64,000 bases of DNA from Gemmatimonadaceae bacterium (lineage in GTDB: Bacteria > Gemmatimonadota > Gemmatimonadetes > Gemmatimonadales > Gemmatimonadaceae), in the NCBI GenBank assembly GCA_035549215.1, contig DASZRI010000106.1, positions 2,687-66,686 on the forward strand. Direction: 5' to 3'. The position numbers and the translations under genes were made by a program. Each line of letters opens with the position of its first letter. Positions within the stretch are counted from its first letter, which is position 1. Shown in pieces: positions 13,218-27,209 of the stretch. The notes under the pieces are model-generated. The model saw nothing but the letters and a program-made list of their open reading frames with translations, searched no databases and was not told the DNA's origin.

Positions 13218-14822
13218 ATGTTCCGCAATCGCAAGTTCGCTGCCGCCGCCATCATCCTGCTCGTGCCGGTCGTTGCCGGCGGGTTCCTGCTGCAGGAAAA
13301 GGGATCACACAACGGCGCGGTGCTGCTCGACCAGGTGTTCTCGCTCGTGTCCAGCCGCTTCGTGGACAGCGTGGACACCTCGGACCTGTATGAGAAGGCC
13401 GCGCGCGGCCTGGTCCGCGAGCTGAACGACCCGTACAGCCAGCTGTTTTCGCCCAAGGAGCTCAAGGCGTTCACCACGAACACCAACGGGCACTACGGCG
13501 GCATCGGCATGCAGATCGAGGACCACGACGGGTTCATCACCGTCAGCAAGGTCTTCCCCAACACGCCGGCCGAGGCGGCGGGCGTGATCGAAGGCGACCG
13601 GATCGTCAAGGTAGACTCGCTGTCGTCGCGCGGGTGGTCGCTGAACCAGACGTCCGACTACCTCACGGGCACGCCGGGCACGAAGGTGAAGGTCACCTTC
13701 AGCCGGCCGGGCGTCACGCAGCCCATCGAGGTGCAGTTCACGCGCGCGGTGATCCGCATTCCCGCCGTGCCCTTCGGCATCATGTTCGACGGCCGCGTGG
13801 GCTACGTGCCGCTGCAGCAGTACAACGAGACCGCCGCGTCCGAGGTGCGCACCGCCGTGCAGGCTCTCGTGAAGCAGGGCGCGCGAGGGATCATCCTCGA
13901 CGAGCGCGGGAATCCGGGCGGGATCCTGGACCAGAGCCTCGAGCTCAGCAACCTGTTCCTGAAGGACGGGCAGGAGATCGCGTCGGTGCGCGGCCGGGAA
14001 GGCCCGCCCTCGGTGTACAACGCCAAGGGCCAGCCGCTGCTCCCGAACACGCCGCTGATCGTGCTCACCGACGGTGGCACGGCATCGGCCGCGGAGATCG
14101 TGGCCGGCGCGCTGCAGGACCACGACCGCGCGCTGATCGTCGGCCAGACGAGCTTCGGCAAGGGCCTCGTGCAGTCCGTCTACAACCTGGATGACGGCTA
14201 CGCGCTCAAGCTCACGACCGCGAAGTGGTACACGCCGAGCGGCCGCTCCATCCAGCGCCCGCGCAAGTACGTGGACGGGCACTTCGTGGAGACGCCGCCG
14301 GACTCGTCGGAGAACGACTCGACCAAGAAGGCGCGCCCCGCGTACAAGTCGGACGCGGGCCGCGTGGTGTATGGCGGCGGCGGCATCACGCCGGACGTGA
14401 TCGTGTCCGACGACACGCTCACCACGGCGGAGCAGAAGTTCGCCAGGGCCATCGCCCCGCGCTCGCAGGACGTGTACCTCACGCTGTACGCGTTCGCCCT
14501 CGACCTCTCGCACCACGTGTCGCGCGGCTTCACGTTCCAGCCCGCGTGGCGCGAGGAGTTCCTCAAGCAGCTCGAGGCGCGCGGCATCACGATCGACCAC
14601 CAGCAGTACGAGGCCGCGTCGCGCTACGTGGACCGCCTGATCGAGCAGCGCCTGTCGCGCTTCGTCGAGGGCGACTCCACGGCCAAGCGCCGCGACCTCC
14701 GGTTCGACGCGCCGCTGCAGCGCGCCATCGCCCTGATGGACAAGGCGAGCACCCAGAAGGACCTGTATGCCGAAGCCGGCCTGAGCCGTACCCCTGCGGC
14801 GGCCACGGCGAAGAAGCCCTGA
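13218..14822 (+). CDS. S41 family carboxyl-terminal processing peptidase (PDZ-containing)
   Basis: N-terminal anchor MFRNRKFAAAAIILLVPVV. GGIGMQI, PDZ (PAEAAGVIEGDRIVKVD), RGNPGG, TASAAEIVAGALQD and FGKGLVQ motifs are present. Confidence 0.9.
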   Translation: MFRNRKFAAAAIILLVPVVAGGFLLQEKGSHNGAVLLDQVFSLVSSRFVDSVDTSDLYEKAARGLVRELNDPYSQLFSPKELKAFTTNTNGHYGGIGMQIEDHDGFITVSKVFPNTPAEAAGVIEGDRIVKVDSLSSRGWSLNQTSDYLTGTPGTKVKVTFSRPGVTQPIEVQFTRAVIRIPAVPFGIMFDGRVGYVPLQQYNETAASEVRTAVQALVKQGARGIILDERGNPGGILDQSLELSNLFLKDGQEIASVRGREGPPSVYNAKGQPLLPNTPLIVLTDGGTASAAEIVAGALQDHDRALIVGQTSFGKGLVQSVYNLDDGYALKLTTAKWYTPSGRSIQRPRKYVDGHFVETPPDSSENDSTKKARPAYKSDAGRVVYGGGGITPDVIVSDDTLTTAEQKFARAIAPRSQDVYLTLYAFALDLSHHVSRGFTFQPAWREEFLKQLEARGITIDHQQYEAASRYVDRLIEQRLSRFVEGDSTAKRRDLRFDAPLQRAIALMDKASTQKDLYAEAGLSRTPAAATAKKP

Positions 14823-14836
14823 TCCGGGTCACGACC

Positions 14837-15877
14837 ATGCGTACTTCCCTTCGTGCCGCCGCCATGGGTGTCCTGGCGGCGGTGTCGTCCGCCGCGGCGC
14901 AGTCCCCGGTGCTCAAGCCGTTTCCCGGCGAGCGCCACCTGGCGAACATCCGCCAGCTCACCTTCGGCGGCGAGAACGCGGAAGCGTACTTCAGCGCCGA
15001 TGGCAAGCGGCTGATCTTCCAGTCCACGCGCAATGGCCGCACGTGCGACCAGCAGTACATCATGGACATCGACGGCTCGCACGTGCACCGCGTGTCCACC
15101 GGCACCGGCAAGACGACGTGCGGCTACTTCTTTGGCGGCGACCGGAAGATCTTCTTCGCCTCCACGCACGCCGTGGACACCACATGCCCGCCCAGGCCCG
15201 ATCCGTCCAAGGGCTACGTGTGGCGCCTCGACCCGTACGACATCTACACCGCGAATGCCGACGGCACCGGGCTCAGGCGCCTGACGTCCAACAACGTCTA
15301 CACGGCAGAAGGCACGCTGTCCCCTGACGGCCAGACCATCGTGTTCACGTCGCTCAAGAACGGCGACCTGGACATCTATACGATGCGGATCGATGGCACG
15401 CATGTGAAGCAGCTCACGCACACGCCAGGGTACGACGGCGGCCCGTTCTTCTCGCCCGACGGCAAGAAGATCGTGTACCGCGCCTGGCACCCGACGGACA
15501 CCGCGCTGACGAACTACCAGGAGCTGCTGCGCCAGGGACTCGTGCGGCCGAATCGCATGGAGATCTGGGTGATGAACGCCGACGGCAGCGACCAGCATCA
15601 GGTCACGTCGCTCGGCGGCGCGAACTTCGCGCCGTACTTCACGCCCGATGGGCGCAAGATCATCTTCTCGTCGAATTACAAGAATCCGCACAGCCGGAAC
15701 TTCGACCTGTACCTGGTCAACCCGGACGGCACCGGGCTCGAGCAGGTGACCACCCACCCCGAGTTCGACGGATTCCCGATGTTCAGCCCCGACGGCAGGA
15801 AGATCGTATGGGCCTCGGACCGTCACGGGCAGAAACTCGGCGAGACCGATATCTTCATCGCCGACTGGGTGCCCTGA
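14837..15877 (+). CDS. TolB-like WD40/PD40 beta-propeller protein, secreted
   Basis: Signal peptide [22 protein letters not shown], then repeated SPDG/SADGK..IVF/IFS PD40 repeats. Confidence 0.8.
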
Positions 15878-15977
15878 CCGCCGCCGGATGCGCTGGCGAC
15901 CAGGCCCGTGGTCGCCAGTGATTCGTTCGCCGACCCGGGGGCTTCCCGTCGGCGACTCCTTCCGCGACGGAGCGGGC

Positions 15978-16922
15978 ATGGAGCGGGACAGCAAGATCTA
16001 CGTCGCAGGACACCTCGGGCTCGTGGGATCGGCACTCGTGCGCGAGCTGCGCGCACAGGGGTACCAACGGCTAGTGCACCGCACGCGCGCCGAGCTCGAC
16101 CTGCTGCGACGTGATGCCGTGGACGCGTTCTTCCGCGAGGAACGGCCCGACTACGTGCTGCTCGCGGCCGCGCGCGTGGGCGGCATCGTGGCGAACAACA
16201 CGTATCCCGCCGACTTCATCCGCGAGAACCTCGAGGTCCAGCTCAACGTCATCGACGCCGCGTATCGGCACGGCGTGCGCAAGCTGCTCTTCCTGGGCAG
16301 CGCGTGCATCTACCCGAAGATCGTGCCGCAGCCGATCCGCGAGGCGTACCTGCTGTCGGGCCCGCTCGAGCCCACCAACGCGCCGTACGCGATCGCAAAG
16401 ATCGCCGGCATCTCGCTCTGCCAGTCGTACAACCGGCAGTACGGCACGAACTTCGTCAGCGTGATGCCGACGAACCTCTACGGCCCCGGCGACAACTTCG
16501 ACCTGCAGAACAGCCACGTGATCCCGGCGCTGCTCCGCAAGTTCGACGAGGCGCGCGAGGCGCGGCTGCCCAGCGTCACGATCTGGGGAAGCGGCACGCC
16601 GCGGCGCGAGTTCCTCCATGTGGACGACATGGCGAGCGCCTGCGTGTTCGTCATGCAGCGCTACGACTCGTCCGAGATCATCAACATCGGGTGCGGGGAA
16701 GACATCTCGATCGGCGAACTCGCGGAGCTTGTGCGCCAGGTCACCGGATTCGAGGGTGCGCTCGAGTTCGACCGGTCAAAACCCGATGGGACTCCAATGC
16801 GTCGCCTGGACGTGAGCCGGCTCCAGGCCATGGGCTGGGCGCCTCGCATCCCCCTGCGAGAGGGACTCGAGTCCACCTACGCCTGGTACAGGGCGAACAA
16901 GGAAACCGCGAGGCACGGCTAG
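15978..16922 (+). CDS. fcl: GDP-L-fucose synthase
   Basis: [50 protein letters not shown] (YxxxK) and PALLRKF...[16 protein letters not shown] are classic Fcl/WcaG features. Confidence 0.9.
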
Positions 16923-17108
16923 CGGCCGTGTCAATGCATTGAAATTCATGTAATTCCGGCCGGGCGGATTGGGAGCCGGTGTCTCGTTTCTTTACGTTGC
17001 CTAATTTCTGGTGGGGCGTCACTTTACTGTCGTCGCCGCACCTCAGCGTATCGGCGGCACGACGGCCTGGTGCGACGATGCACTGGGACACCCCAGACGA
17101 CCCGCTCG

Positions 17109-18632
17109 ATGGCCCTGACCATCCTCATCCTCGCAACGCTTGCTTCACTGGCCGCTACGCGGTGGCTGGTGAGAGTGGCTCCGACGCAGCGTGAGCCCAG
17201 CATCGTGCCGATCACGTATCGGCCGGGTTCGGCGCCTGCCGTCCCGCGCGTGGGTGGTGTCGCGGTGTTCGTTGCGCTGATGGTCGCACTTGTCATTGCT
17301 GCGCTCGCCGGCTCACGCGGCGTGGACATGATGCTCGAGCACGCGCAGTTGTACGCCGGCATCCTGGCCGGCAGCGTGCTCATCCTCGCAGTCGGCCTGG
17401 CCGACGACCTGCTCGACCTCTCCCCCGCCGTGAAGCTCGCGGCGCAGGCGATTGCCGCGACGGTCGCGTGCACGGGTGGCCTTTGCCTCAAGACCGTCGC
17501 GCTGACGCCGTCGCTGACGGTGTCGCTCGGCTGGGTCGGCATCCCGCTCACGATCCTCTGGGTCGTGACGGTCACGAACGCGTTCAACTTCATCGACGGC
17601 CTGGACGGCCTCGCGTCGAGCATCGGCATCGTGGGCTTCGGCGCCACGCTGGTGTCGGCGTGGGTGCTTGGGCGCGCCGACGTCATGCTCCTCTCGGTCG
17701 GCATGATCGGCGCGCTGCTCGGCTTCCTGCGCTACAACTTCGCGCCGGCGCGCATCTACCTCGGCGACTGCGGCAGCCTGTTCGTCGGCTACATGCTCGC
17801 GGTCGGCTCGCTGGTCGGCGCCACTTCGCCGTCCTCCGGATCGCTGATCTACGTCCCGGTGTTCGCGCTCGCGCTGCCGCTCCTCGATGCGGCCGTCGCA
17901 ATCGTCCGGCGGTGGCTGCGCAGCATGCCGGTGTGGAAGGGCGACCACCGGCACATCCACCATCGCGTCCAGTCGCTCGGCCTGTCCAAGCCGGCCAGCG
18001 TCGGCGTGCTGGTGCTCGGCGCGGCCCTGCTTGCCACCAGCGGCCTGCTCGCCGCGTTCGCGAGCGCGGACGCCTTCCCGTCCGTTGCGGTGATGATTGC
18101 GGCGACGGTGGTGACGATGGTCGGCTACGGACTGCGCCGCCTGGGATACTACGAGTTTGCCGCGCTGCGCGCCGCCCTGCGGGCGCGGCCGGCCTCGGTG
18201 CGGCAGTTCATCCGGGAGGAGATCCGCCTGCGTGACGCCGAGTGCGAGATCCGCACGGCGCGCGACATGGAGGACCTGCGGACCACGCTGGACCGGTGCG
18301 CGCTGGCGTTCGGCCTCGATCGGATCGAGATTTCGCGCAGCAGGCCCCGGATCCGTCGCTCGTGGCAGGGCACCTATCGCGACCTGGTCATCACGCCCGC
18401 GGCGCAACGCGCCTCCGATGCGTGGAACCTGCGCGTCTGGCACGGCGAGTATGGCTCGCCCGGCGAGGCCCTTGTGCAGCGCGTGGGTGCAGCGCTGGCG
18501 CGGGCGACGGAAGGGTGGCTGCGTGACTATGGCTTGCTGCTCGCAGGCCGGCCTTCGCCGGCCCTTACCGAACCCGCGGCGCACTTGCGCCTGCGCACCG
18601 CGTTCCGCCGATCGCGCCTGGCCGAGGCCTGA
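17109..18632 (+). CDS. WecA/MraY-family polyprenyl-phosphate sugar-1-phosphate transferase with a C-terminal extension of about 150 aa
   Basis: Multi-TM protein with LADDLLDLSP and VTNAFNFIDGLDGLA signature motifs. The last ~150 residues (ALRAALRARPASVRQF...RSRLAEA) are soluble and of unknown family. Confidence 0.85.
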   Translation: MALTILILATLASLAATRWLVRVAPTQREPSIVPITYRPGSAPAVPRVGGVAVFVALMVALVIAALAGSRGVDMMLEHAQLYAGILAGSVLILAVGLADDLLDLSPAVKLAAQAIAATVACTGGLCLKTVALTPSLTVSLGWVGIPLTILWVVTVTNAFNFIDGLDGLASSIGIVGFGATLVSAWVLGRADVMLLSVGMIGALLGFLRYNFAPARIYLGDCGSLFVGYMLAVGSLVGATSPSSGSLIYVPVFALALPLLDAAVAIVRRWLRSMPVWKGDHRHIHHRVQSLGLSKPASVGVLVLGAALLATSGLLAAFASADAFPSVAVMIAATVVTMVGYGLRRLGYYEFAALRAALRARPASVRQFIREEIRLRDAECEIRTARDMEDLRTTLDRCALAFGLDRIEISRSRPRIRRSWQGTYRDLVITPAAQRASDAWNLRVWHGEYGSPGEALVQRVGAALARATEGWLRDYGLLLAGRPSPALTEPAAHLRLRTAFRRSRLAEA

Positions 18633-18656
18633 TCCACGGTGCCGGGAGGTCGTGTC

Positions 18657-18944
18657 ATGCCCGGCCCGCTGACGATCGACTCGCGGGTCGCCGCGGCGCC
18701 CGACCAGCTCTCGACGCAGCTCTCCGGCGAGACCGTCATCCTCGCCCTGCAGAGCGGGCAGTACTTCGGGCTCGATCCCGTCGGCACGTACATCTGGGAG
18801 TTCCTGCGCGAGCCGCGCCGCGTGCACGAGGTGGTGGCGCACGTCGTCTCCCGGTACGACGTCAGCGACGAGCAGTGCACGCGCGACGTGCTGGCGCTGA
18901 TGGGTGAGCTCGCGTCGCACGGCCTCGTCACCATCGAGGAGTGA
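18657..18944 (+). CDS. PqqD-family RiPP recognition element (lasso B1-type)
   Basis: ATG at 18657, 6 nt after GGGAGGT. The sequence is ...LSGETVILALQSGQYFGLDPVGTYIWEFLREPRRVHEVVAHVVSRYDVSDEQCTRDVLALMGELASHGLVTIEE. This fits the PqqD pattern (x-v-l-l-sg-yy-LN-vg--iW, then an acidic helix, then L---gli). Confidence 0.8.
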   Translation: MPGPLTIDSRVAAAPDQLSTQLSGETVILALQSGQYFGLDPVGTYIWEFLREPRRVHEVVAHVVSRYDVSDEQCTRDVLALMGELASHGLVTIEE

Positions 18945-18969
18945 GGCTGCGCCGTCGGCTGCGCATGCC

Positions 18970-20847
18970 ATGAGCGGATTCGTCGTCCTGCTCGCGCGCC
19001 ACGGCGCGGCCGTGGATCGCGCGCAGCTCGGGCGCCTGGCGCAGGGGCTCGCATTCCGTGGGCCGGACAGCACCCACACGCTCGTCCGCGGCCCGGCGGG
19101 GTTCGGCGTGTCGCTGCTGCATGCGTCCATGCATCGTTCGCCCGCGGATTCCGTGCGGCAGGCGCTCGTGGACGACGGCGACATGGTGCTGGTCGGCGAC
19201 GTGCGCCTGGACGACCGGGACCGTGTGCGTCGAGACCTCGAGGGCGCCGGCGCTGCGGCACGACCCGACGCGACAGATGCTGAACTGTGGCTCGCGGCAT
19301 ATCGCACCTGGGGATCGTCGTGCGTCACGCATCTTTCCGGCGACTTTGCCGTTGTCGTCTGGGACGAGCCCCGGCAGCGCCTGCTCCTGGCCCGCGATCA
19401 GTTCGGGGTTGCGCCGCTCTACTACGCGCAGGCCGGGGGGGACCTCGTCGTCTCCAACACGCTCGACGCCATTCGCGCGCACCCGGGCGTCAGCGCTGAA
19501 CTCGACGACGGCGCCGTCGGCGATTTCCTGCGCGTCGGGTACAACACCGACCTCGCATCCACGGTGTTCCGCCAGGTGCGCTGCGTTCCGCCCGCGCATG
19601 TTGCTGGGGTCCGCGACGGCGTCGTGCACGTCGAGCGCTACTGGGAGCTGCCCGTCGAGGAGCCAGTGGCGTTCGGGAGCATCGCGGAATGCGCTGCGGC
19701 ATTCAACGAGGTCCTGCGCGCGGCCGTGCGGGACCGCCTGCGGGACACCGACGCCGCGGCGCTCCTGCTGAGCGGCGGCCGCGATTCCACTGCGGTGGCG
19801 GCGACGGCGCGCGACGTGGTGCCGGCCGGAACCCTGCCGGCCCTGCGTGCCTTCACGATCCACTACGACTACGCCGTTCCCGATGAGGAGCGTGCATTCG
19901 CCAGTGCGGCCGCCGCGCACCTCGGCATTCCGGCGGAGTTCGTCGCTGCCGACGAATACGCGCTGTTTGGCGGCCGCACTCGCACGGATTGCTGGCGTCC
20001 CGCGCCGGTTGAGGATGCGCAGCTTGCGGCCGATGCGGATTTCATGGCGCGCGTCGCGCGGCACGCGCGGGTTGCGCTGGATGGGCACGGGGGTGACGCC
20101 GCCCTGCGTGAGAGCGAGTCGCGATTGGCCCGCCTGCTGCTTGGTGGCCACTGGTGGCGCGCGCTGCGCGAGGCAACCACGTACACGATGCTGCACCACC
20201 GACTGCCGCGGCCGGGGTTCCGCCGGCTCCGCGCACGGCGCGCACAGGCGCTGCCGCTGCTCAACCCGATCCCGCAATGGATGCGACCGGAATTCATTCG
20301 CGCAGCGCGCCTCGAGGAGCGATGGCGTGCCGTCGAGCGCGCGGCGGAGCGCGACGCGCAGCATCATCCGTGGCGGCCGGAGGCGTACGGCAAGCTCGTG
20401 TCGTGGTTCTGGCCGCGAATGTTCGAGGAGATGGACCCCGGGTTCACCGGCGTTCCTGTCCATGTGCGCCACCCACTCATGGACCTGCGCGTCGTCCGGT
20501 TCCTGCTGCGCGTGCCCCCTGCGCAGTGGTACAACGACAAGGGAATCCTGGTCGCGGCCATGAAGGGGCGGCTGCCCGACCGCGTGCGCTTCCGGAACAA
20601 GACGCCGCTGGTGGGCGATGCAAATGCCGTTGCACTGGCCGCTGGCGGGGTGCCTGCCACCGAGCTCCAGCGCGTGTCGCCCCGCATCGAGCCGTACGTC
20701 GATCCCGCCGGGTTCGGGACGACGCCCTCGAGTCCGGACAGCGATGACTCGTGGGACTGGCTGCGTGCCGTGAGCCTTTCCGAGTGGCTCGCGCGAGTCG
20801 AGCGTGGAGACTCGTTCGTGAGGGCGGGGGGAGAGCCAGGAATGTGA
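18970..20847 (+). CDS. Asparagine-synthetase-like lasso peptide cyclase (C protein)
   Basis: The N-terminus is MSGFVV, so it lacks the catalytic Cys2 of true AsnB (MCG). The PP-loop LLLSGGRDSTAVAA (SGGxDS) is present. At 625 aa it sits between the RRE and precursor genes. Confidence 0.8.
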   Translation: MSGFVVLLARHGAAVDRAQLGRLAQGLAFRGPDSTHTLVRGPAGFGVSLLHASMHRSPADSVRQALVDDGDMVLVGDVRLDDRDRVRRDLEGAGAAARPDATDAELWLAAYRTWGSSCVTHLSGDFAVVVWDEPRQRLLLARDQFGVAPLYYAQAGGDLVVSNTLDAIRAHPGVSAELDDGAVGDFLRVGYNTDLASTVFRQVRCVPPAHVAGVRDGVVHVERYWELPVEEPVAFGSIAECAAAFNEVLRAAVRDRLRDTDAAALLLSGGRDSTAVAATARDVVPAGTLPALRAFTIHYDYAVPDEERAFASAAAAHLGIPAEFVAADEYALFGGRTRTDCWRPAPVEDAQLAADADFMARVARHARVALDGHGGDAALRESESRLARLLLGGHWWRALREATTYTMLHHRLPRPGFRRLRARRAQALPLLNPIPQWMRPEFIRAARLEERWRAVERAAERDAQHHPWRPEAYGKLVSWFWPRMFEEMDPGFTGVPVHVRHPLMDLRVVRFLLRVPPAQWYNDKGILVAAMKGRLPDRVRFRNKTPLVGDANAVALAAGGVPATELQRVSPRIEPYVDPAGFGTTPSSPDSDDSWDWLRAVSLSEWLARVERGDSFVRAGGEPGM

Positions 20848-20887
20848 CGGACGCCGCCCGAAGCGGTCGGTCGATGGCGCCGGCGCG

Positions 20888-21130
20888 GTGGATTTCCGGC
20901 GGTCGGCAACGTATCCTGTTTCCATGGGCCTTCATGAAAACTGCACGGCCACAGCGGGCCAGTCCGCTGGTTCAAGCCAACGCGCTTCCTCGGCAGAAAC
21001 CGGGGCCGCGCGCGAGCCCTACACCTCGCCACAGGTGAACCACCTTGGCCTCGTGAAAGAGCTCACCGAGACGGTGGGGTCGCGCGGCAAGAAGGACGGC
21101 AAGACCGGGAACCGCAGGACGGGATACTAG
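20888..21130 (+). CDS. Lasso-type precursor peptide A1 (80 codons from the GTG at 20888; the true start is uncertain)
   Basis: ...EPYTSPQVNHLGLVKELTE-TVGSRGKKDGKTGNRRTGY*. The leader carries Y-17, P-14, V-12, G-8 and T-2. The C-terminal 19 aa are nearly identical to those of the adjacent ORF, with synonymous differences between them (AAC CGC AGG versus AAT CGC CGC, both N-R-R). Confidence 0.7.
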   Translation: MDFRRSATYPVSMGLHENCTATAGQSAGSSQRASSAETGAAREPYTSPQVNHLGLVKELTETVGSRGKKDGKTGNRRTGY

Positions 21131-21132
21131 AC

Positions 21133-21378
21133 ATGACCGGTGAGAATGGACGTCCGGTCGCGGCTATACATGGGAGCCCAATTACAGGCCCCCATCGGGA
21201 AATGCCGTCTCCGGATCTGCCCGGCACAGCGACGGCGCCAGAGGCCGGCCAGAAGCCCCGGCTGCCGTATGCACCGCCGCGACTGACTGTGCTCGGAACC
21301 GTAGCCGATATCACCCGGACGGTGGGAACGCGCGGCCGCAAGGACGGGAAGAGAGGTAATCGCCGCACGGGATACTGA
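21133..21378 (+). CDS. Lasso-type precursor peptide A2 (81 codons)
   Basis: The ATG lies 2 nt after the A1 stop. ...LPYAPPRLTVLGTVADITR-TVGTRGRKDGKRGNRRTGY*. The leader carries Y-17, P-14, L-12, G-8 and T-2, an exact match to YxxPxLxxxGxxxxxTx. Confidence 0.75.
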   Translation: MTGENGRPVAAIHGSPITGPHREMPSPDLPGTATAPEAGQKPRLPYAPPRLTVLGTVADITRTVGTRGRKDGKRGNRRTGY

Positions 21379-21442
21379 ACCCGCGCGAGGCTCGTGTCGG
21401 CCTGTTCGTGCGAGGGCGGATCCGGTATCCTCCCACGCATCC

Positions 21443-22411
21443 ATGTCGGCCTTCCAAGCGCGCGTGTACGGCCTCGTCCTGCAGTGTGACGAGGCAATCC
21501 CGGGACTGTCCGCGACGGACCAGGGCCCGGCGGATGTGGTGGTGCGCCTTCGGGCGCTCCCGGCGTGGCTCGAACGCGAGGATGGTTCATCTCGCACCAT
21601 CTGGACCGCGCGCGCAGGCGATGATCGTGACACGGACGATCTCGTCGTCCGCACCTGGCGCGACGGCGCCTACGTCGAGGTCGCCTACGACGACGGTACG
21701 CGCTTCGTGATGGATCACGGGGGCACGCAGGTCTGGGCCCAGTGGCGCAACGCGTCGTCCATCGAGGACATGGCGACCTACCTGCTGGGCCCGGTGCTCG
21801 GCCTGCTCCTCCGACTGCGCGGAACGCTCTCCCTGCACGCAAGCGCCGTCACGTTTGGCGATACGGCGGTGGCGTTCACCGGGCAGGCAGGCGCTGGCAA
21901 GTCCACCACCGCCGCGGCGTTCGCCCAGCGTGGCGCGCGCGTGATCGCCGACGACATCGCGGCGCTGTTCGTGCGCGATGCTCGCTGGTGGGTGGAGGCA
22001 GGCCCTGCGTCCGTCCGCCTGTGGCCGGAGAGCGCAACGGCGCTGTTCGGCGACGCTTCCACGCTTCCCCTGCTCGCACCGTCCTGGGAGAAGCGGCAGG
22101 TGACGCCCGGCGTCCTGCCCGCAGCATTTGCCGGCGAATCACCCGTCGCACTCTCTGCCGTCGTCATTCTCGGCGCCCGCGGAACGGGAAGTGCGCCCAC
22201 GCTGGCTCCACTCTCCCAGCGCGACGCACTCGTCGCTCTCGTGGCCGACACCTACGCCAGCGTCCTGCTCGACCCAGCGCAGCGCGGCGTCGAGTTCCTG
22301 GCGCTCTCGCGGCTCGTGCAGGACGTGCCCGTGTATCGCGCCACCCCCGCGGATGACATCGGGCGCCTTGATGAGCTCTGCGACGCCGTGCGCCGGCTCG
22401 TCCATGGCTGA
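21443..22411 (+). CDS. HPr-kinase-related (HprK-like) kinase, RiPP tailoring type
   Basis: LHASAVTFGDTAVAFTGQAGAGKSTTAAAFAQRGARVIADD resembles the HprK C-terminal P-loop domain, in a RiPP gene context. Confidence 0.7.
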   Translation: MSAFQARVYGLVLQCDEAIPGLSATDQGPADVVVRLRALPAWLEREDGSSRTIWTARAGDDRDTDDLVVRTWRDGAYVEVAYDDGTRFVMDHGGTQVWAQWRNASSIEDMATYLLGPVLGLLLRLRGTLSLHASAVTFGDTAVAFTGQAGAGKSTTAAAFAQRGARVIADDIAALFVRDARWWVEAGPASVRLWPESATALFGDASTLPLLAPSWEKRQVTPGVLPAAFAGESPVALSAVVILGARGTGSAPTLAPLSQRDALVALVADTYASVLLDPAQRGVEFLALSRLVQDVPVYRATPADDIGRLDELCDAVRRLVHG

Positions 22412-23591
22412 GCATGCGCCGCTGCACCACCCGCTGCTCGACGTAGCCCGGTGGTGCGCGCGTGCCGAGCTTGACGACACGGCACGCGCCGCACTCGATG
22501 CGTGCACGGCGACGCCGCTCGCATGGGATGCGCTGCCGCCATTGCTGCGCGCGCATGGGCTCACCGCGCTCGCGGTGCGGCACCTCTCACACGTTCGCAC
22601 GCGCATCCCGCCGCCGGTGTGGGACACACTGTCGGGGCAGTCCGCGGAGGACCAGGCGCGCGCGCTGCGCATGACCGCCGAGTTGCTGCGCATCGTGGAT
22701 GCGCTCGGCGCCGAGGGGATCGCGGTGCTGCCGTACAAGGGGCCGCTGCTCGGCCTCGTGGCGTACGGCGACCTGGCTATGCGCCGCTCATCCGACCTCG
22801 ACGTGCTCATCCACCCGGCCGACATGGCGCGAGCGATCGCAGCACTGGCGCCACTCGGCTATCGGAACGCGGATCGCATGTCGCCGGCGCAGGCAGCGTG
22901 GTTCCTGCGCGCCGACGGGGACGTGTCCGTCGTCCACGACGACACGGGGCTGCTCGTCGAGCTCCACGCATACGCGACCACACGCCGGCTTGGCCCCACG
23001 CCCGGGTTCGCCGAATTGTGGGAGCGGCGGAAGGACCTCCAGGTCGCGGGGCGCCGTGTTCCCGCGCTCGACGCACATGACCAGCTGCTGCTCCTCGCAC
23101 TGCACGGCACCAAGCACGGCTGGCGAAAGCTGGAATGGCTCGCCGGTCTTGCATCGCTGGCCGCCCGCAATCCGGACGCACTCGAGCGACTCATCGCCGC
23201 AGCGCCGTCCGGTGCCCGCGCCCTGCGCCTCGCGTGCGCACTGTCGGCCTCGCTGCTCAGCGTGGAACTGCCCGAGCGCGTGCGGCACGCCGTCGCCGCG
23301 GATGCCGCTGCGAATGCCCTGGCCGCGCAGGTGGTGACACACATGCAGCAGCCGGAGGACGACCCCAAGCGCGATGACACGTTCGAGCGGCTGCTCTTCA
23401 ACTGGCGTGCGCAGGACGGCACCCGCGCGCGGGTGCGCTATGCATGGCGTTGGGGAACCTGGCCGTCGCCGGAGGACTGGCAGCAGGTGAGGCTGCCGGA
23501 CGCGTTGTTTCCCGCCTATCGCCTGGTGAGGCCGATCCGCCTGGCATGGCGCTTCGGCCCTCGCGCGCTGGCGTCCATCTTCGCGCGCTGA
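22404..23591 (+). CDS. Nucleotidyltransferase family protein (uncharacterised NTase, NTP_transf_5-like)
   Basis: The ATG overlaps the kinase stop by 8 nt (ATGGCTGA). KGPLLGLVAYGDLAMRRSSDLDVLIHPAD fits the pol-beta-type G[GS]...DxD motif. The partnership with an HprK-like kinase is as in other lasso loci. Confidence 0.65.
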   Translation: MAEHAPLHHPLLDVARWCARAELDDTARAALDACTATPLAWDALPPLLRAHGLTALAVRHLSHVRTRIPPPVWDTLSGQSAEDQARALRMTAELLRIVDALGAEGIAVLPYKGPLLGLVAYGDLAMRRSSDLDVLIHPADMARAIAALAPLGYRNADRMSPAQAAWFLRADGDVSVVHDDTGLLVELHAYATTRRLGPTPGFAELWERRKDLQVAGRRVPALDAHDQLLLLALHGTKHGWRKLEWLAGLASLAARNPDALERLIAAAPSGARALRLACALSASLLSVELPERVRHAVAADAAANALAAQVVTHMQQPEDDPKRDDTFERLLFNWRAQDGTRARVRYAWRWGTWPSPEDWQQVRLPDALFPAYRLVRPIRLAWRFGPRALASIFAR

Positions 23592-23599
23592 GGATCGGG

Positions 23600-26104
23600 T
23601 CAGCCGCCTTCCTGCGGCGCGTACCCGTAGCCGTAGTAGTAGTCGCCGTAGCGTCCGTAGCGCGGCGTGCGTGCGTCAGGGTCGTTGAGCACGGCGCCAA
23701 GGATGCGGCCGCCCACGTTGCGGATCTGCTCCACGGCGTGGCGCGCGGCTTCGCGTTCGGTCCTGCCCGCGCGCACGACAACGAGCACGCCGTCAGCCTG
23801 CACGCTCATGAGCGCCGCATCGGCAGTGACGAGCACCGGCGGCGTATCCACGAGGATGACGTCGAATTTCGCCCGCAGCGTATCGAGCAGCTCGTGCATG
23901 CGCTCGCCGCCCAGGAACTCGAGCGGGTTCGGCGGCAACGTGCCGCCCGGAAGGACACTGAGCCCCGCCACGCCCGATGCGCGCAGTCCCTGGTCGAGGG
24001 TGTTCTTGCCGACCAGCACGTCGGTGAGCCCCGGCTCGAGTGCCAGGCCGAACACATCATGCACGCGCGCGCGGCGCAGGTCCGCGTCGATCAGCACCAC
24101 GCGGCGTCCCTGCTGGGCGAATGCGACGGCGAGGTTGGCCGAGGTCGTCGTCTTGCCCTCGCCAGCCGAGGCGCTGGTCACGACCATGACCTTGAGCCCC
24201 GGGCGGGACGCCGAGTACATCAGGTTGGTCATGAGCTTGCGGTACGCCTCGGCACTGGCCGAACGCACGTCGCTGATCATGACCAGCTCCTGCCCGTCGC
24301 CCTCGCTCGCCAGCACTCGCGTCGACGGGATCATGCTCGGCAGCAGCCGGCTTGCCGTGGCCCGGGCGCGCGCGCGCAGGGTGGCGTGGGCGTCCGCGCT
24401 GATCTGCGGCACGAGGGCGAGCCCGGGCACGTGCATGACGCTGTCCAGGTCGTCCCAGCGGCGGATGGTGCTGTTCAACCGGTCGGTGACGATGGCCAGC
24501 CCGATACCGAACAGGAGCCCGATCAGGAGGGCGTACGCCAGCTTGCGCCGCCGTCCCGCGGTGATCGCGCCCATCGGGTAGCGCGCGAGGTCCACCACCT
24601 GCACCTGCCCCGCCTCGACGGCCTCGGCGATGCGCGCCACCTGGAGCTCGTCGTTCAGCTTGTCCGACATCTTGCGGATGTTGTCCACGTCGCGGAGCAG
24701 GCGCTGCTCTGTCTCCTCGGACGACGGCAGGGACGCGATCTGGCCCGCGGCCTGCTGCCGGCGCGCGTTGACGGCGGACAGGTTGCCGTCGATCACGGCG
24801 AGCTGGTTGCGCACGGCGGCGATCAGCTTGGGTTCCGTGCTTGCGATGAGCGCGTCCACGCGTTGCACGTCCGGGTGCTGCGGCGTGCGCGCGAACATGC
24901 CCGTCGTGAGCGAGTCGCGCGCGTGCTCGTAGCGCATCAGGTCGGTGTACAGCGCGCCGACCGCCGCGTTGCCGCTGGGATCCGGCGTGAACGCCAGCGT
25001 CCGCAGCGCAGCGGGATCGCCGTTGGTGTGGCGCTCGAGCGCGCTCAGCAGCCCCTGGTACGACCGCCGTGCATCGTCGAGCTGCTGGACACGCTGGTCG
25101 AGCGTCGCGAGATCCTGCTGCTCGGTGGCGTAGCGGTCCTTGGCGCTGAATGCGAGGGTGCCGCGGCGATAGGCGGCCACGCGCGCCTCCGCCAATTGCA
25201 GCATCGAGTCGGTGGCCGCGAGCTGCGTCTCGATGAAGATGCGGCGACGGTGTGACTGCTGGCGCGCCGTGCGCGCATTGAACGCCTGGTACTGCAGGGC
25301 GGCGGCGCTCGCCACCCGCTGCACGACATAGGGATCGTTGCCCGTAAACGAGATATCGATCACCGATGTCATGTCGCGCGGCTTGGCGCTGATGCCGCCG
25401 AGCACCGCGTCGATGGCCGCCTCACGCGGGAGGACGGCCAGCGAGGCGTCCTGCCAGCCGGGCTGCGGGCCGGGAATCGTGAACGTGGCGCTGGCAATCT
25501 CGATTGGCGTGCCGTACGCGGCGGTCACCGTGTCGCGCGGCCCGCTCACGGTCACGCTCTTCGACGTGAAGTGCAGTCGCAGCGTTGCGGGAACGGCGTT
25601 CGGCGCCACCCGCACGTCCTCGAAGTTCGCGAGGTAGAAGCCCGGCGTAATACTCTGCAATTGGAGGCCAAGCGAGTCCACGACCAGCTCTGCGATGGCG
25701 CGGCTCTGGATCACCTGCACCTGCGTCAGCACCGGGTCCGTGTACCCGCCGTAAGCGCTCGCGTAGTCGGGCACGAGGTCGCCAGCCACCTGCGGCCGCT
25801 GGTCGGTGAGCTGCACCGCGCTGGACGTCCGGAACAGCGGCAGGTCGTGGCGCGTGCGGTACCACTGGTAACTGATCCCGACGAGCGCCGAGAGGACGAT
25901 GAGCCACCAGTACCGGCGCAGGATGCCCAGGTACTGCCGGATCGGGTTGGCGGCGGGAAGCGACGCATCCGGCCCGAAGCCGGGCGGGAATCCGGCGCCC
26001 GGAGGCGGGTACGCGAAATTCGGCATCATCGCACCCGGCATCGGGCGGCGCACTTCCACGGGTCGGTTCTCAGTCACGGCCCCTCCGGCGGGATCGAGAC
26101 GCAT
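23600..26104 (-). CDS. Polysaccharide co-polymerase / tyrosine autokinase (Wzc/GumC-type)
   Basis: It has a Wzz-like periplasmic domain, a second TM helix, a Walker A (SASAGEGKTTTSANLA) and DADLRR. The C-terminal Tyr cluster reads YGRYGDYYYGYGY. The start is Met at 26104 or Met at 26041. Confidence 0.85.
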   Translation of the reverse strand: MRLDPAGGAVTENRPVEVRRPMPGAMMPNFAYPPPGAGFPPGFGPDASLPAANPIRQYLGILRRYWWLIVLSALVGISYQWYRTRHDLPLFRTSSAVQLTDQRPQVAGDLVPDYASAYGGYTDPVLTQVQVIQSRAIAELVVDSLGLQLQSITPGFYLANFEDVRVAPNAVPATLRLHFTSKSVTVSGPRDTVTAAYGTPIEIASATFTIPGPQPGWQDASLAVLPREAAIDAVLGGISAKPRDMTSVIDISFTGNDPYVVQRVASAAALQYQAFNARTARQQSHRRRIFIETQLAATDSMLQLAEARVAAYRRGTLAFSAKDRYATEQQDLATLDQRVQQLDDARRSYQGLLSALERHTNGDPAALRTLAFTPDPSGNAAVGALYTDLMRYEHARDSLTTGMFARTPQHPDVQRVDALIASTEPKLIAAVRNQLAVIDGNLSAVNARRQQAAGQIASLPSSEETEQRLLRDVDNIRKMSDKLNDELQVARIAEAVEAGQVQVVDLARYPMGAITAGRRRKLAYALLIGLLFGIGLAIVTDRLNSTIRRWDDLDSVMHVPGLALVPQISADAHATLRARARATASRLLPSMIPSTRVLASEGDGQELVMISDVRSASAEAYRKLMTNLMYSASRPGLKVMVVTSASAGEGKTTTSANLAVAFAQQGRRVVLIDADLRRARVHDVFGLALEPGLTDVLVGKNTLDQGLRASGVAGLSVLPGGTLPPNPLEFLGGERMHELLDTLRAKFDVILVDTPPVLVTADAALMSVQADGVLVVVRAGRTEREAARHAVEQIRNVGGRILGAVLNDPDARTPRYGRYGDYYYGYGYAPQEGG

Positions 26105-27209
26105 GACGTGCGGACACGTCCGCGTAGAGGGCGCGGGTCCGCTCGCCCATGCTCTGCAAGCTAAACTCTTCTGCGACGCGCTGCCTGCCCGCAACCCCGA
26201 GGGTGTGCCGGAGTCCCGGGTCGTTCAGCAGGCGGTTGATGGCCGCGGCAAGGGCCTGCGGATCGGCCGGCGGCACGGTCAGGCCCGTTTCCCCATCACG
26301 CGACACCTCGGGCACCCCCGACGGAATGTTGGTGTTGACCACGGGGATCCCGCTGGCCATCGCCTCGAGCTGCACGATGCCGAACGCCTCGCTGCGCAGG
26401 TGGGATGGAAGGGCGAACACCGACGCGGCGTGGTACCACGGCGTGGTGTCGGCCACATGCCCGACGAACGTCACGCGATCGGCGACTCCCACACTGCGGG
26501 CCTCGGCCTCGAGGGCGGCGCGCATGGGCCCCTGGCCCACGATCACGAGTCGCGCATCCACGCGGGACATGGCGCGGATCAGGTACTCCAACCCCTTGTA
26601 GTACACGAGCCGCCCCACCGCGAGCACGATGCGATCGCCGTACGCCTGCCGGATGCGCGCCACCGCAGCGGGATCCGCGGTCGCGTAGGCGGCGGGATCA
26701 ATCGCCATCGGGATCTCGACGCAGCGGTCCGAATGCCGCTGCAGCATGGGCGAGCCTCGCATGTAGGCGGTGGAGCTCACGATCACCGCATCGGCCCGCC
26801 GCAACACACCGCGCACGATCGGTTCATACACCACGTTGAGCAGCTGCTGCTGCACCACGTCGCTGTGATAGGTCACGACGAGCGGGCCCCGGTGCCCGCT
26901 GGCCAGGTAGCTCGCGAAGGCCGACGGATTCGGGTGGTGCAGGTGCACGATGTCCGCACGCGCCGAGCGGATGCGCCAGGGCAGCGTCGGGCAGATGGGC
27001 GCGCTGCGCACCGTCGCGATCGTCGCCATGCGCGTCACCGGCACGCCGTCAATCACCTCGTTGGTGGTGTGCGCGCTGTGGCTCGCCACGACGACGTCGA
27101 GCGTCACGTAGTCACGCAGCACGCGGCACAACCCTTCCAGGTGTGTCTCCATGCCGCCTTCATCAGGCGGGTAGTACTTGCCGACCTGCAGTACGCGTAC
27201 GTCACGCAT
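26070..27209 (-). CDS. Glycosyltransferase, GT4-type (GT-B fold)
   Basis: MRDVRVLQVGKYYPPDEGGMETH... and SEAFGIVQLEAMASGIPVV (E-x7-E). The start overlaps the upstream stop (ATGCGTGA). Confidence 0.85.
   Translation of the reverse strand: MRDVRVLQVGKYYPPDEGGMETHLEGLCRVLRDYVTLDVVVASHSAHTTNEVIDGVPVTRMATIATVRSAPICPTLPWRIRSARADIVHLHHPNPSAFASYLASGHRGPLVVTYHSDVVQQQLLNVVYEPIVRGVLRRADAVIVSSTAYMRGSPMLQRHSDRCVEIPMAIDPAAYATADPAAVARIRQAYGDRIVLAVGRLVYYKGLEYLIRAMSRVDARLVIVGQGPMRAALEAEARSVGVADRVTFVGHVADTTPWYHAASVFALPSHLRSEAFGIVQLEAMASGIPVVNTNIPSGVPEVSRDGETGLTVPPADPQALAAAINRLLNDPGLRHTLGVAGRQRVAEEFSLQSMGERTRALYADVSARHASRSRRRGRD

Follow-up and report, generated by a model that had tools for sequence, protein, structure and literature searches.

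The DNA considered here is a 64,000-nt stretch (hereafter the window; positions 2687–66686 of the 71-kb contig C106, DASZRI010000106.1) from a metagenome-assembled genome (MAG) of Gemmatimonadota (2.9 Mb in 472 contigs, 93% complete, ~70% G+C), and its subject is a predicted split-B lasso peptide cluster, whose leader peptidase B2 is not found on the contig and is probably encoded elsewhere on the chromosome. Its six lasso genes, all intact and encoded on the forward strand, are those for B1, the cyclase C, the precursors A1 and A2, an HprK-like kinase (K) and a nucleotidyltransferase of the NTP_transf_5 family (N). B1 (18639–18944) is a PqqD-type recognition element for peptides that are made on the ribosome and modified after translation (RiPPs), i.e. 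a leader-binding chaperone (PF05402: 70 bits, cut-off 23.4); its top NCBIfam match is NF033536, lasso_PqqD_Bac (70.2 bits, under the strict cut-off of 80), and it is the sole PqqD-like gene found across this genome. It is followed after 25 nt by C (18970–20847), a lasso macrolactam synthetase of the Asn-synthase fold (PF00733: 108 bits), with the lasso cyclase family NF033535 as the top NCBIfam match (279 bits, under the cut-off of 525). C begins with MSG, hence without the catalytic Cys of the glutamine amidotransferase domain, and retains the PP-loop motif SGGRDS. Its orthologs, 49–54% identical and with the same synteny, occur in 12 genomes of the genus, and a wider search of genome contigs with the cyclase alone returned only distant matches (28–37% identity). 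The conserved parts of the precursors A1 (21020–21130; the reading frame possibly starts as early as 20888) and A2 (21268–21378; possible start at 21133 or at Met24) are followed by K (21443–22411), a putative tailoring HprK-like P-loop kinase (PF07475: 26.9 bits, below the cut-off of 33.3; TIGR04352: 35 bits, under the cut-off of 200), which has the P-loop and is syntenic with the K genes of all relatives (42–45% identity), and by N (22404–23591), an NTP_transf_5 nucleotidyltransferase and PsmN-like putative tailoring enzyme (PF14907: 147.6 bits, cut-off 31.2).

The leader motif is YTSPQVNHLGLVKELTE in A1 (21020–21070) and YAPPRLTVLGTVADITR in A2 (21268–21318), the latter precursor being recognized also by the lasso leader profile NF033521 (22 bits, above the cut-off of 19). 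Both fit the pattern Y(-17)xxP(-14)x[LV](-12)xxxG(-8)xxxxxT(-2)x with an Asp at core position 9, and so do 30 related precursors, in which Y(-17), P(-14), L/V(-12), G(-8) and the Thr are invariant, the Thr being followed by one variable residue and by an invariant Asp nine residues later. A rule that places YxxPxL at -17 to -12 has been used and experimentally validated for a related kinase-type cluster (PMC10368454). Because of this rule and of the invariant register, the cores are predicted to be TVGSRGKKDGKTGNRRTGY (A1, 21071–21127) and TVGTRGRKDGKRGNRRTGY (A2, 21319–21375), with a Thr1–Asp9 ring. The predicted cut site lies two residues upstream of the one assumed in an earlier, sequence-only reading of this DNA, and yields a core that starts with TVG and closes a nine-residue ring at Asp9. 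That reading had pointed to a Thr kept at position -2 of both leaders; the Thr it meant is indeed present in both, but it is replaced by Ala in one relative (G011), and the Thr that is invariant among the 30 precursors sits two residues upstream. At core position 1 the residue varies to an unusual degree, being T, S, A, K, L or N. Both precursors of the window end with RTGY; in the genus the cores all end with (R/K)TG(F/Y), those of two more distant loci (L060 and L061) end in Thr, and none ends in Ser. Kinases of this kind can target positions other than a C-terminal Ser, as BsfK demonstrates (PMC10368454).

The sequence-only reading had reported that neither B2 nor an ABC exporter nor an isopeptidase is visible near these genes, that B2 is absent from 17.1–26.1 kb and from the rest of the window, and that the gaps between genes do not exceed 64 nt; all of these negatives hold, and the absence of the three proteins extends to the entire 71-kb contig, as tested in six frames with Pfam, NCBIfam and a custom model. 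PF13471 and NF033537, searched in six frames against the whole genome at E<=10, have zero matches on the contig, and a custom hidden Markov model (HMM) built from Gemmatimonadota B2s and run with --max against all stop-to-stop frames of the 71-kb contig revealed no B2, with a top score of 6.6 bits. The widest intergenic gap in 17.1–26.1 kb is 64 nt (21378 to 21443). The genome search for an Atxe2-type isopeptidase (NF033523) gave 109 bits at best, far under the cut-off of 400. The ABC exporter D of the relatives has no ortholog in this genome, whose best match to it, at 32% identity, is on another contig, and there is no room for an exporter at the locus, since N and the convergent Wzc-like gene (23600–26194, reverse strand) are only 8 nt apart (23592–23599).

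Several proteins of the window were considered as possible carriers of the missing activity and rejected. The WecA-like GT4 priming transferase, an operon neighbor directly upstream of B1 (17109–18632, forward strand; PF00953: 133.9 bits) has a C-terminal tail of ~165 aa, which hhalign compared with the B2 profile at a probability of 0.1%; the tail is retained in a relative without lasso genes (G016), and its only Cys is Ser in another (G010). Neither the WecA extension nor, according to the contig-wide HMMs, the sequence just outside the window provides a B2. N lacks a PF13471 match and a fused B2 domain, and profile searches gave no B2 signal for N, K or C, so that the idea of an unrecognizable fusion, raised in the sequence-only reading, is rejected for the WecA tail, N, K and C. 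The neighboring S41 and PD40 proteins are both still encoded in G016 despite the deletion of its lasso genes, and the PD40 protein consists of a propeller only, with an apparent N-terminal signal peptide judged from its sequence. A fusion of D with B2 was likewise discarded, D of the relatives comprising ABC_membrane and ABC_tran only.

A B2 gene was found away from the contig. The top PF13471 match of the genome (contig C90, 25.5 bits) was rejected as a lasso B2, since this protein of 516 aa, hydrophobic at its N-terminus and apparently membrane-anchored, matches Transglut_core (PF01841) with 77.6 bits. The genome-wide search gave a lead with the lasso B2 profile NF033537 (19.6 bits) at the extreme end of contig C149, in a frame that reads ...AAVCIGVRRGTGGSAGTLSAHAWVARSATDRQFHGY... 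Residues 1–37 of the same protein are encoded at C452:22485–22595 and residues 86–133 at C149:6823–6680, both fragments lying at contig ends and being 100% identical to P0126, the protein encoded by a 990-bp metagenome contig (L075). This contig overlaps C452 (99.8% identity over 631 bp) and C149 (98.6% over 218 bp), bridges the 141-bp gap between them and contains an intact 134-aa B2 gene. In this assembly the gene escapes notice, since it straddles the C452–C149 gap; the genome therefore encodes a B2, the middle third of which, including the catalytic Cys, fell into the gap. Of the possibilities entertained in the sequence-only reading, the one that has the peptidase encoded elsewhere thus found its gene, and this gene is conserved across the genus.

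P0126 matches NF033537 with 52.8 bits (cut-off 33) and also matches PF13471, and a database search with one of the B2s of the genus retrieves a tight family that includes P0126 and is named "lasso peptide biosynthesis B2 protein" by NCBI. Cys68, within a motif of the form CLY[ER]SVAEC, and His106, within HAW, are invariant in 36 homologs. The canonical Asp site (VxGD/E, ~12 residues past the His) is missing, and an Asp ~9 residues past the His is conserved only within the genus. The AlphaFold2 model of P0126 has a pLDDT of 85, and a PDB sequence search with B2 returned only a transglutaminase (E=0.2).

Same-genus genomes hold such a B2-like gene of ~134 aa distant from the cyclase. It is single-copy in 14 of 17 genomes, at the fixed site QueC-QueE-OmpA-[B2]-DUF3311-SSF, and its dN/dS of 0.07–0.43 indicates purifying selection. 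In the genome analyzed here the site is rearranged: ~4.4 kb (C452:18072–22485) separate OmpA from B2, which are adjacent in most relatives, and an alpha/beta hydrolase gene replaces DUF3311-SSF downstream. The distance from B2 to the cyclase is 590 kb in the near-complete genome G010 (4 contigs), and in each of three further genomes (G011, G014 and G002) a single lasso cyclase and a single B2 lie unlinked. The cluster itself, with the order S41-PD40-epimerase-GT4-B1-C-A-K-(M)-N-D-Wzc, lacks B2 in every member of the genus as well as in the distant lineage of L060 and L061; the more distant G018 has B1-B2-C-A-K-M-N-D, with B2 in the cluster.

All 13 assessable genus genomes with the cluster also have B2. 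Two genomes without the lasso core lack the peptidase as well: G016, which is devoid of B1-C-A-K-N and keeps the exporter, and G015, in which the whole cluster is absent, show a clean excision of B2 from the syntenic site. A third, G004, has no cluster and retains B2. A weak NF033537 match in G016 (17.3 bits, with a stop codon) proved spurious, as it bears no B2 similarity and the true syntenic site is empty. The co-occurrence of cluster and B2 gives a one-sided Fisher p = 0.025, with no correction for phylogeny. Besides a single PqqD and a single lasso cyclase, this genome contains no further system that depends on a RiPP recognition element and no radical-SAM (rSAM), K2 or B1b module, so no other partner for the orphan B2 is apparent in its sequence; K2, the HprK-like gene of the rSAM module discussed below, is absent from 17/17 genus genomes.

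Taken together, we estimate at roughly 70% the probability that the solitary 134-aa B2, encoded in trans elsewhere on the chromosome and of paralogous origin, processes the leaders of this cluster. According to this model B1 would bind the Y(-17)xxP(-14)xL(-12) element of the A1 and A2 leaders and present them to B2, which would use Cys68 and His106 to cut after T(-2)-x(-1). The T(-2) shared without exception by the 30 lasso precursors speaks for continued cleavage of the B2 type. Two observations detailed below point the same way: the linkage of lasso cluster and rSAM module in L137, and the leader grammar that the precursors of both systems have in common. C would then join the N-terminus of Thr1 to Asp9, giving a 9-residue ring with a 10-residue cationic tail; K would phosphorylate a hydroxyl, the candidates being the conserved Thr of (R/K)TG(F/Y), or Thr1/Ser4; and N would add a sugar or a nucleotide, like PsmN. 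Without D the peptide could stay cell-associated or leave by another route. In evolutionary terms, an in-cluster B2, still seen in G018, would have been lost and its task taken over by the paralogous B2 of the rSAM module, with D and M (a methyltransferase gene, see below) further lost in this lineage.

A number of points weigh against this interpretation. The action in trans is deduced from genomic comparison, and the middle third of B2 with the catalytic Cys is not in this MAG, being known only from a near-identical metagenome contig. The subfamily is divergent, with a shorter C-terminus (model positions 24–110 of 132), no VxGD/E Asp and the Cys motif CLYESVAE instead of CLxRSxAL, and Foldseek against the PDB gave transglutaminase-fold matches only, consistent in fold and all non-significant (E>=0.12). 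One genome (G004) keeps B2 without a lasso cluster, so that the enzyme may serve some other function there or may have been orphaned only recently. The co-occurrence is based on 16 assessable genomes, a small sample that lacks phylogenetic independence. Finally, the loss of D and M here, the decay of D in G010 and the deletion of the core genes in G016 show the locus eroding in some lineages.

Could the cluster do without a dedicated B2, with general proteases or aminopeptidases trimming the leader, C cyclizing the core, and the orphan B2 serving another substrate? The sequence-only reading had named pseudomycoidin as a cluster reported to work without B2, but the native cluster encodes both psmB1 and psmB2; the two proved dispensable in E. 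coli and B. subtilis, where the peptide was still made after deletion of both genes (PMC6993621). The B2 of G004, in a genome without any lasso cluster, would fit such a scheme. We nevertheless consider it unlikely: without B proteins the yield of pseudomycoidin was limited by leader removal (PMC6993621), the presence of B1 in every cluster and the invariant T(-2) make sense only for processing of the B1/B2 type, G015 and G016, devoid of the lasso core genes, have had the orphan B2 deleted as well, and a housekeeping protease is no longer required once the off-contig B2 is known.

Quite improbable, too, is that the locus is a decaying remnant that yields no mature peptide, having lost B2, exporter and methyltransferase, with the solitary B2 an unrelated relic of an rSAM module. 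In favor of this reading stand the absence of D and M here, the fragmentation of D in G010 and the deletion of the core genes in G016; the lasso genes are only 43–53% identical to those of a relative as against 66–84% for the flanks; and the orphan B2 clade joins the B2s of rSAM modules rather than the in-cluster lasso B2s. However, none of the six lasso genes is broken, the leader motif is complete in both paralogous precursors, which also have Asp9 and the C-terminal RTGY, and the PP-loop of the cyclase is preserved; purifying selection acts on B2 in 14 genomes, none of which has the rSAM module, and lasso clusters of the kinase type that naturally lack D have been described (PMC10368454). 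Very improbable, lastly, is a B2 hidden in the window, whether in the WecA tail, at the C-terminal end of N, in the N-terminal part of K or in the neighboring S41 and PD40 proteins. Even if N-B2 fusions (PMC8498205) and B2-ABC fusions (PMC10885120) exist in other lasso clusters, and Pfam assigns nothing to the WecA tail or to the first ~120 residues of K, all three B2 profiles are silent on the contig, the WecA tail lacks both profile similarity and a conserved Cys, and the tail, S41 and PD40 outlive the lasso genes in G016.

As to the origin of the orphan B2, its clade (support 100/98) groups in the phylogenetic tree with the B2s of rSAM modules, apart from those of lasso clusters. These modules recur in many Gemmatimonadota metagenome contigs (L063:2698–8387, L064, L085, L087, L107, L108, L117, L124 and L137:8855–15584), have no cyclase within 10 kb and consist of a small precursor ORF, a radical SAM gene, one or two PD40 propellers, PqqD, B2, an HprK-like gene (K2) and a ~325-aa protein (X). 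Their precursors read W(-17)xxP(-14)xV(-12)...T(-2)L, and the Gly-rich cores behind this leader end with STV(V/F)(P/F), cores of the form ...GGSTV(V/F)P among them; judged from these sequences, they exhibit the lasso leader grammar without the lasso core, and the module may represent an undescribed RiPP class that uses leader removal of the lasso B1/B2 type. In L137, whose cyclase is 47% identical to that of the window, both systems lie side by side on the same strand, B1-C-A-C-A-A-K-M-N-D being followed by rSAM-PD40-PD40-PqqD-B2-K2-X, and in relatives of this kind one peptidase may serve two RiPP classes with a common leader grammar. A three-step history offers the simplest account: the lasso cluster would have dropped its own B2 while adjoining a module whose B2 reads the same leader, the module would then have decayed, and its B2 alone would have been retained in the genus. 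We propose only tentatively that the lasso pathway swapped its in-cluster B2 for a paralog borrowed from another, undescribed RiPP system, namely the rSAM module, and that this paralog became a stand-alone, trans-acting enzyme in the genus.

The exporter and the methyltransferase vary among the relatives. In same-genus relatives the place of the 8-nt junction that separates N from the Wzc-like gene is taken by a 582-aa ABC exporter D, with plain ABC_membrane and ABC_tran domains. An intact D occurs in G011, G014, G002 and G016, and none in the genome of the window, so by this comparison the missing exporter is best described as a lineage-specific deletion, not a trait of the cluster type. In G010 (contig C2, L071, 5459–6652) D survives as three fragments, with an internal deletion and a frame change, and in G016 (contig C8, L078, 5162–11055) GT4-D-Wzc is kept and B1, C, A, K and N are lost, so that D is the sole lasso survivor. 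A PrmA/PRMT_C-like methyltransferase M is encoded between K and N in L059 (13359–14558) and also in L060, L061 and L065; it is absent from the window, G014, G002 and G010. The relatives that have M possess Arg/Lys-rich cores, which hints that their lasso peptide is methylated at arginine or lysine. L060 (7960–12235) and L061 (7957–12494) combine two tandem cyclases with three or four precursors in one cluster, and have two genes without any Pfam match (269 and 228 aa) directly upstream of PqqD.

The closest known systems are paeninodin, pseudomycoidin (psmA-K-B1-B2-N-C-D) and the bsf cluster of Bradymonas, which likewise combine a B1 of the PqqD type and a cyclase of the Asn-synthase type with an HprK-like kinase, an NTP_transf_5 nucleotidyltransferase and a leader that has YxxPxL at -17 to -12; natural variants of such clusters without D or N are documented (PMC10368454). 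In all three B2 stands beside B1, whereas here it is unlinked. Paeninodin-type cores end in Ser, the kinase target, whereas the polycationic cores described here end with (R/K)TG(F/Y); in addition, the cluster differs in its variable residue 1 and invariant Asp9, and in its location within an exopolysaccharide locus, co-oriented with the WecA-like gene. The orphan B2 shares with the canonical lasso B2 (MEROPS C96; PF13471; NF033537; e.g. that of G018) the transglutaminase-like core, the invariant Cys and His of HAW and a size of ~130–150 aa, but forms a separate clade with a truncated C-terminus that lacks VxGD/E and has its usual home in the cyclase-less rSAM/PqqD/B2/HprK-like module. Maturation proteases encoded away from their cluster and found by co-occurrence have been described for lanthipeptides by correlational networking (PMC8960859), and TldD/E of microcin B17 is a similar case; those proteases are general or unrelated to the class, whereas the unlinked enzyme proposed here would be a class-specific B2 that depends on the recognition element.

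As for the surroundings of the cluster, the GT4 tail (18090–18632) is conserved genus-wide with the motifs YYEF...FIREEIRLRDAE...LDRCALAFGLDRIEISR...LRVWHGEY, is cytoplasmic, and occurs independently of the lasso genes. Comparison of the window (13218–23591) with L059 gives identities of 46% for B1, 53% for C, 43% for K and 45% for N, and of 71% for S41, 84% for PD40, 77% for the epimerase and 66% for GT4. This divergence of the lasso genes relative to their flanks suggests that the RiPP cassette, at a site that stays the same, either evolves fast or has undergone allelic replacement.

The system thus appears to be a lasso cluster of a known kind with an unusual architecture, largely explained by a class-specific peptidase of paralogous origin that is encoded in trans. 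Among the papers searched for unclustered or absent lasso B2s none reports an unlinked B2, which is not proof that none exists. For work with MAGs the case carries the lesson that an apparently missing gene can sit in an assembly gap, the clue being here a weak 19.6-bit match at a contig end. The lasso mining rules of RODEO and antiSMASH expect B, C and the recognition element side by side, and a clade with its peptidase hundreds of kilobases away would be under-counted by such rules. If our interpretation is true, mining tools that demand a B2 next to C would overlook an entire clade of lasso clusters in Gemmatimonadota, and the visible cluster, when refactored alone, could fail or give a low yield. 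The genus would then offer a testable example of a trans-encoded B2, and its history hints at cross-talk of two RiPP systems with a common leader motif.

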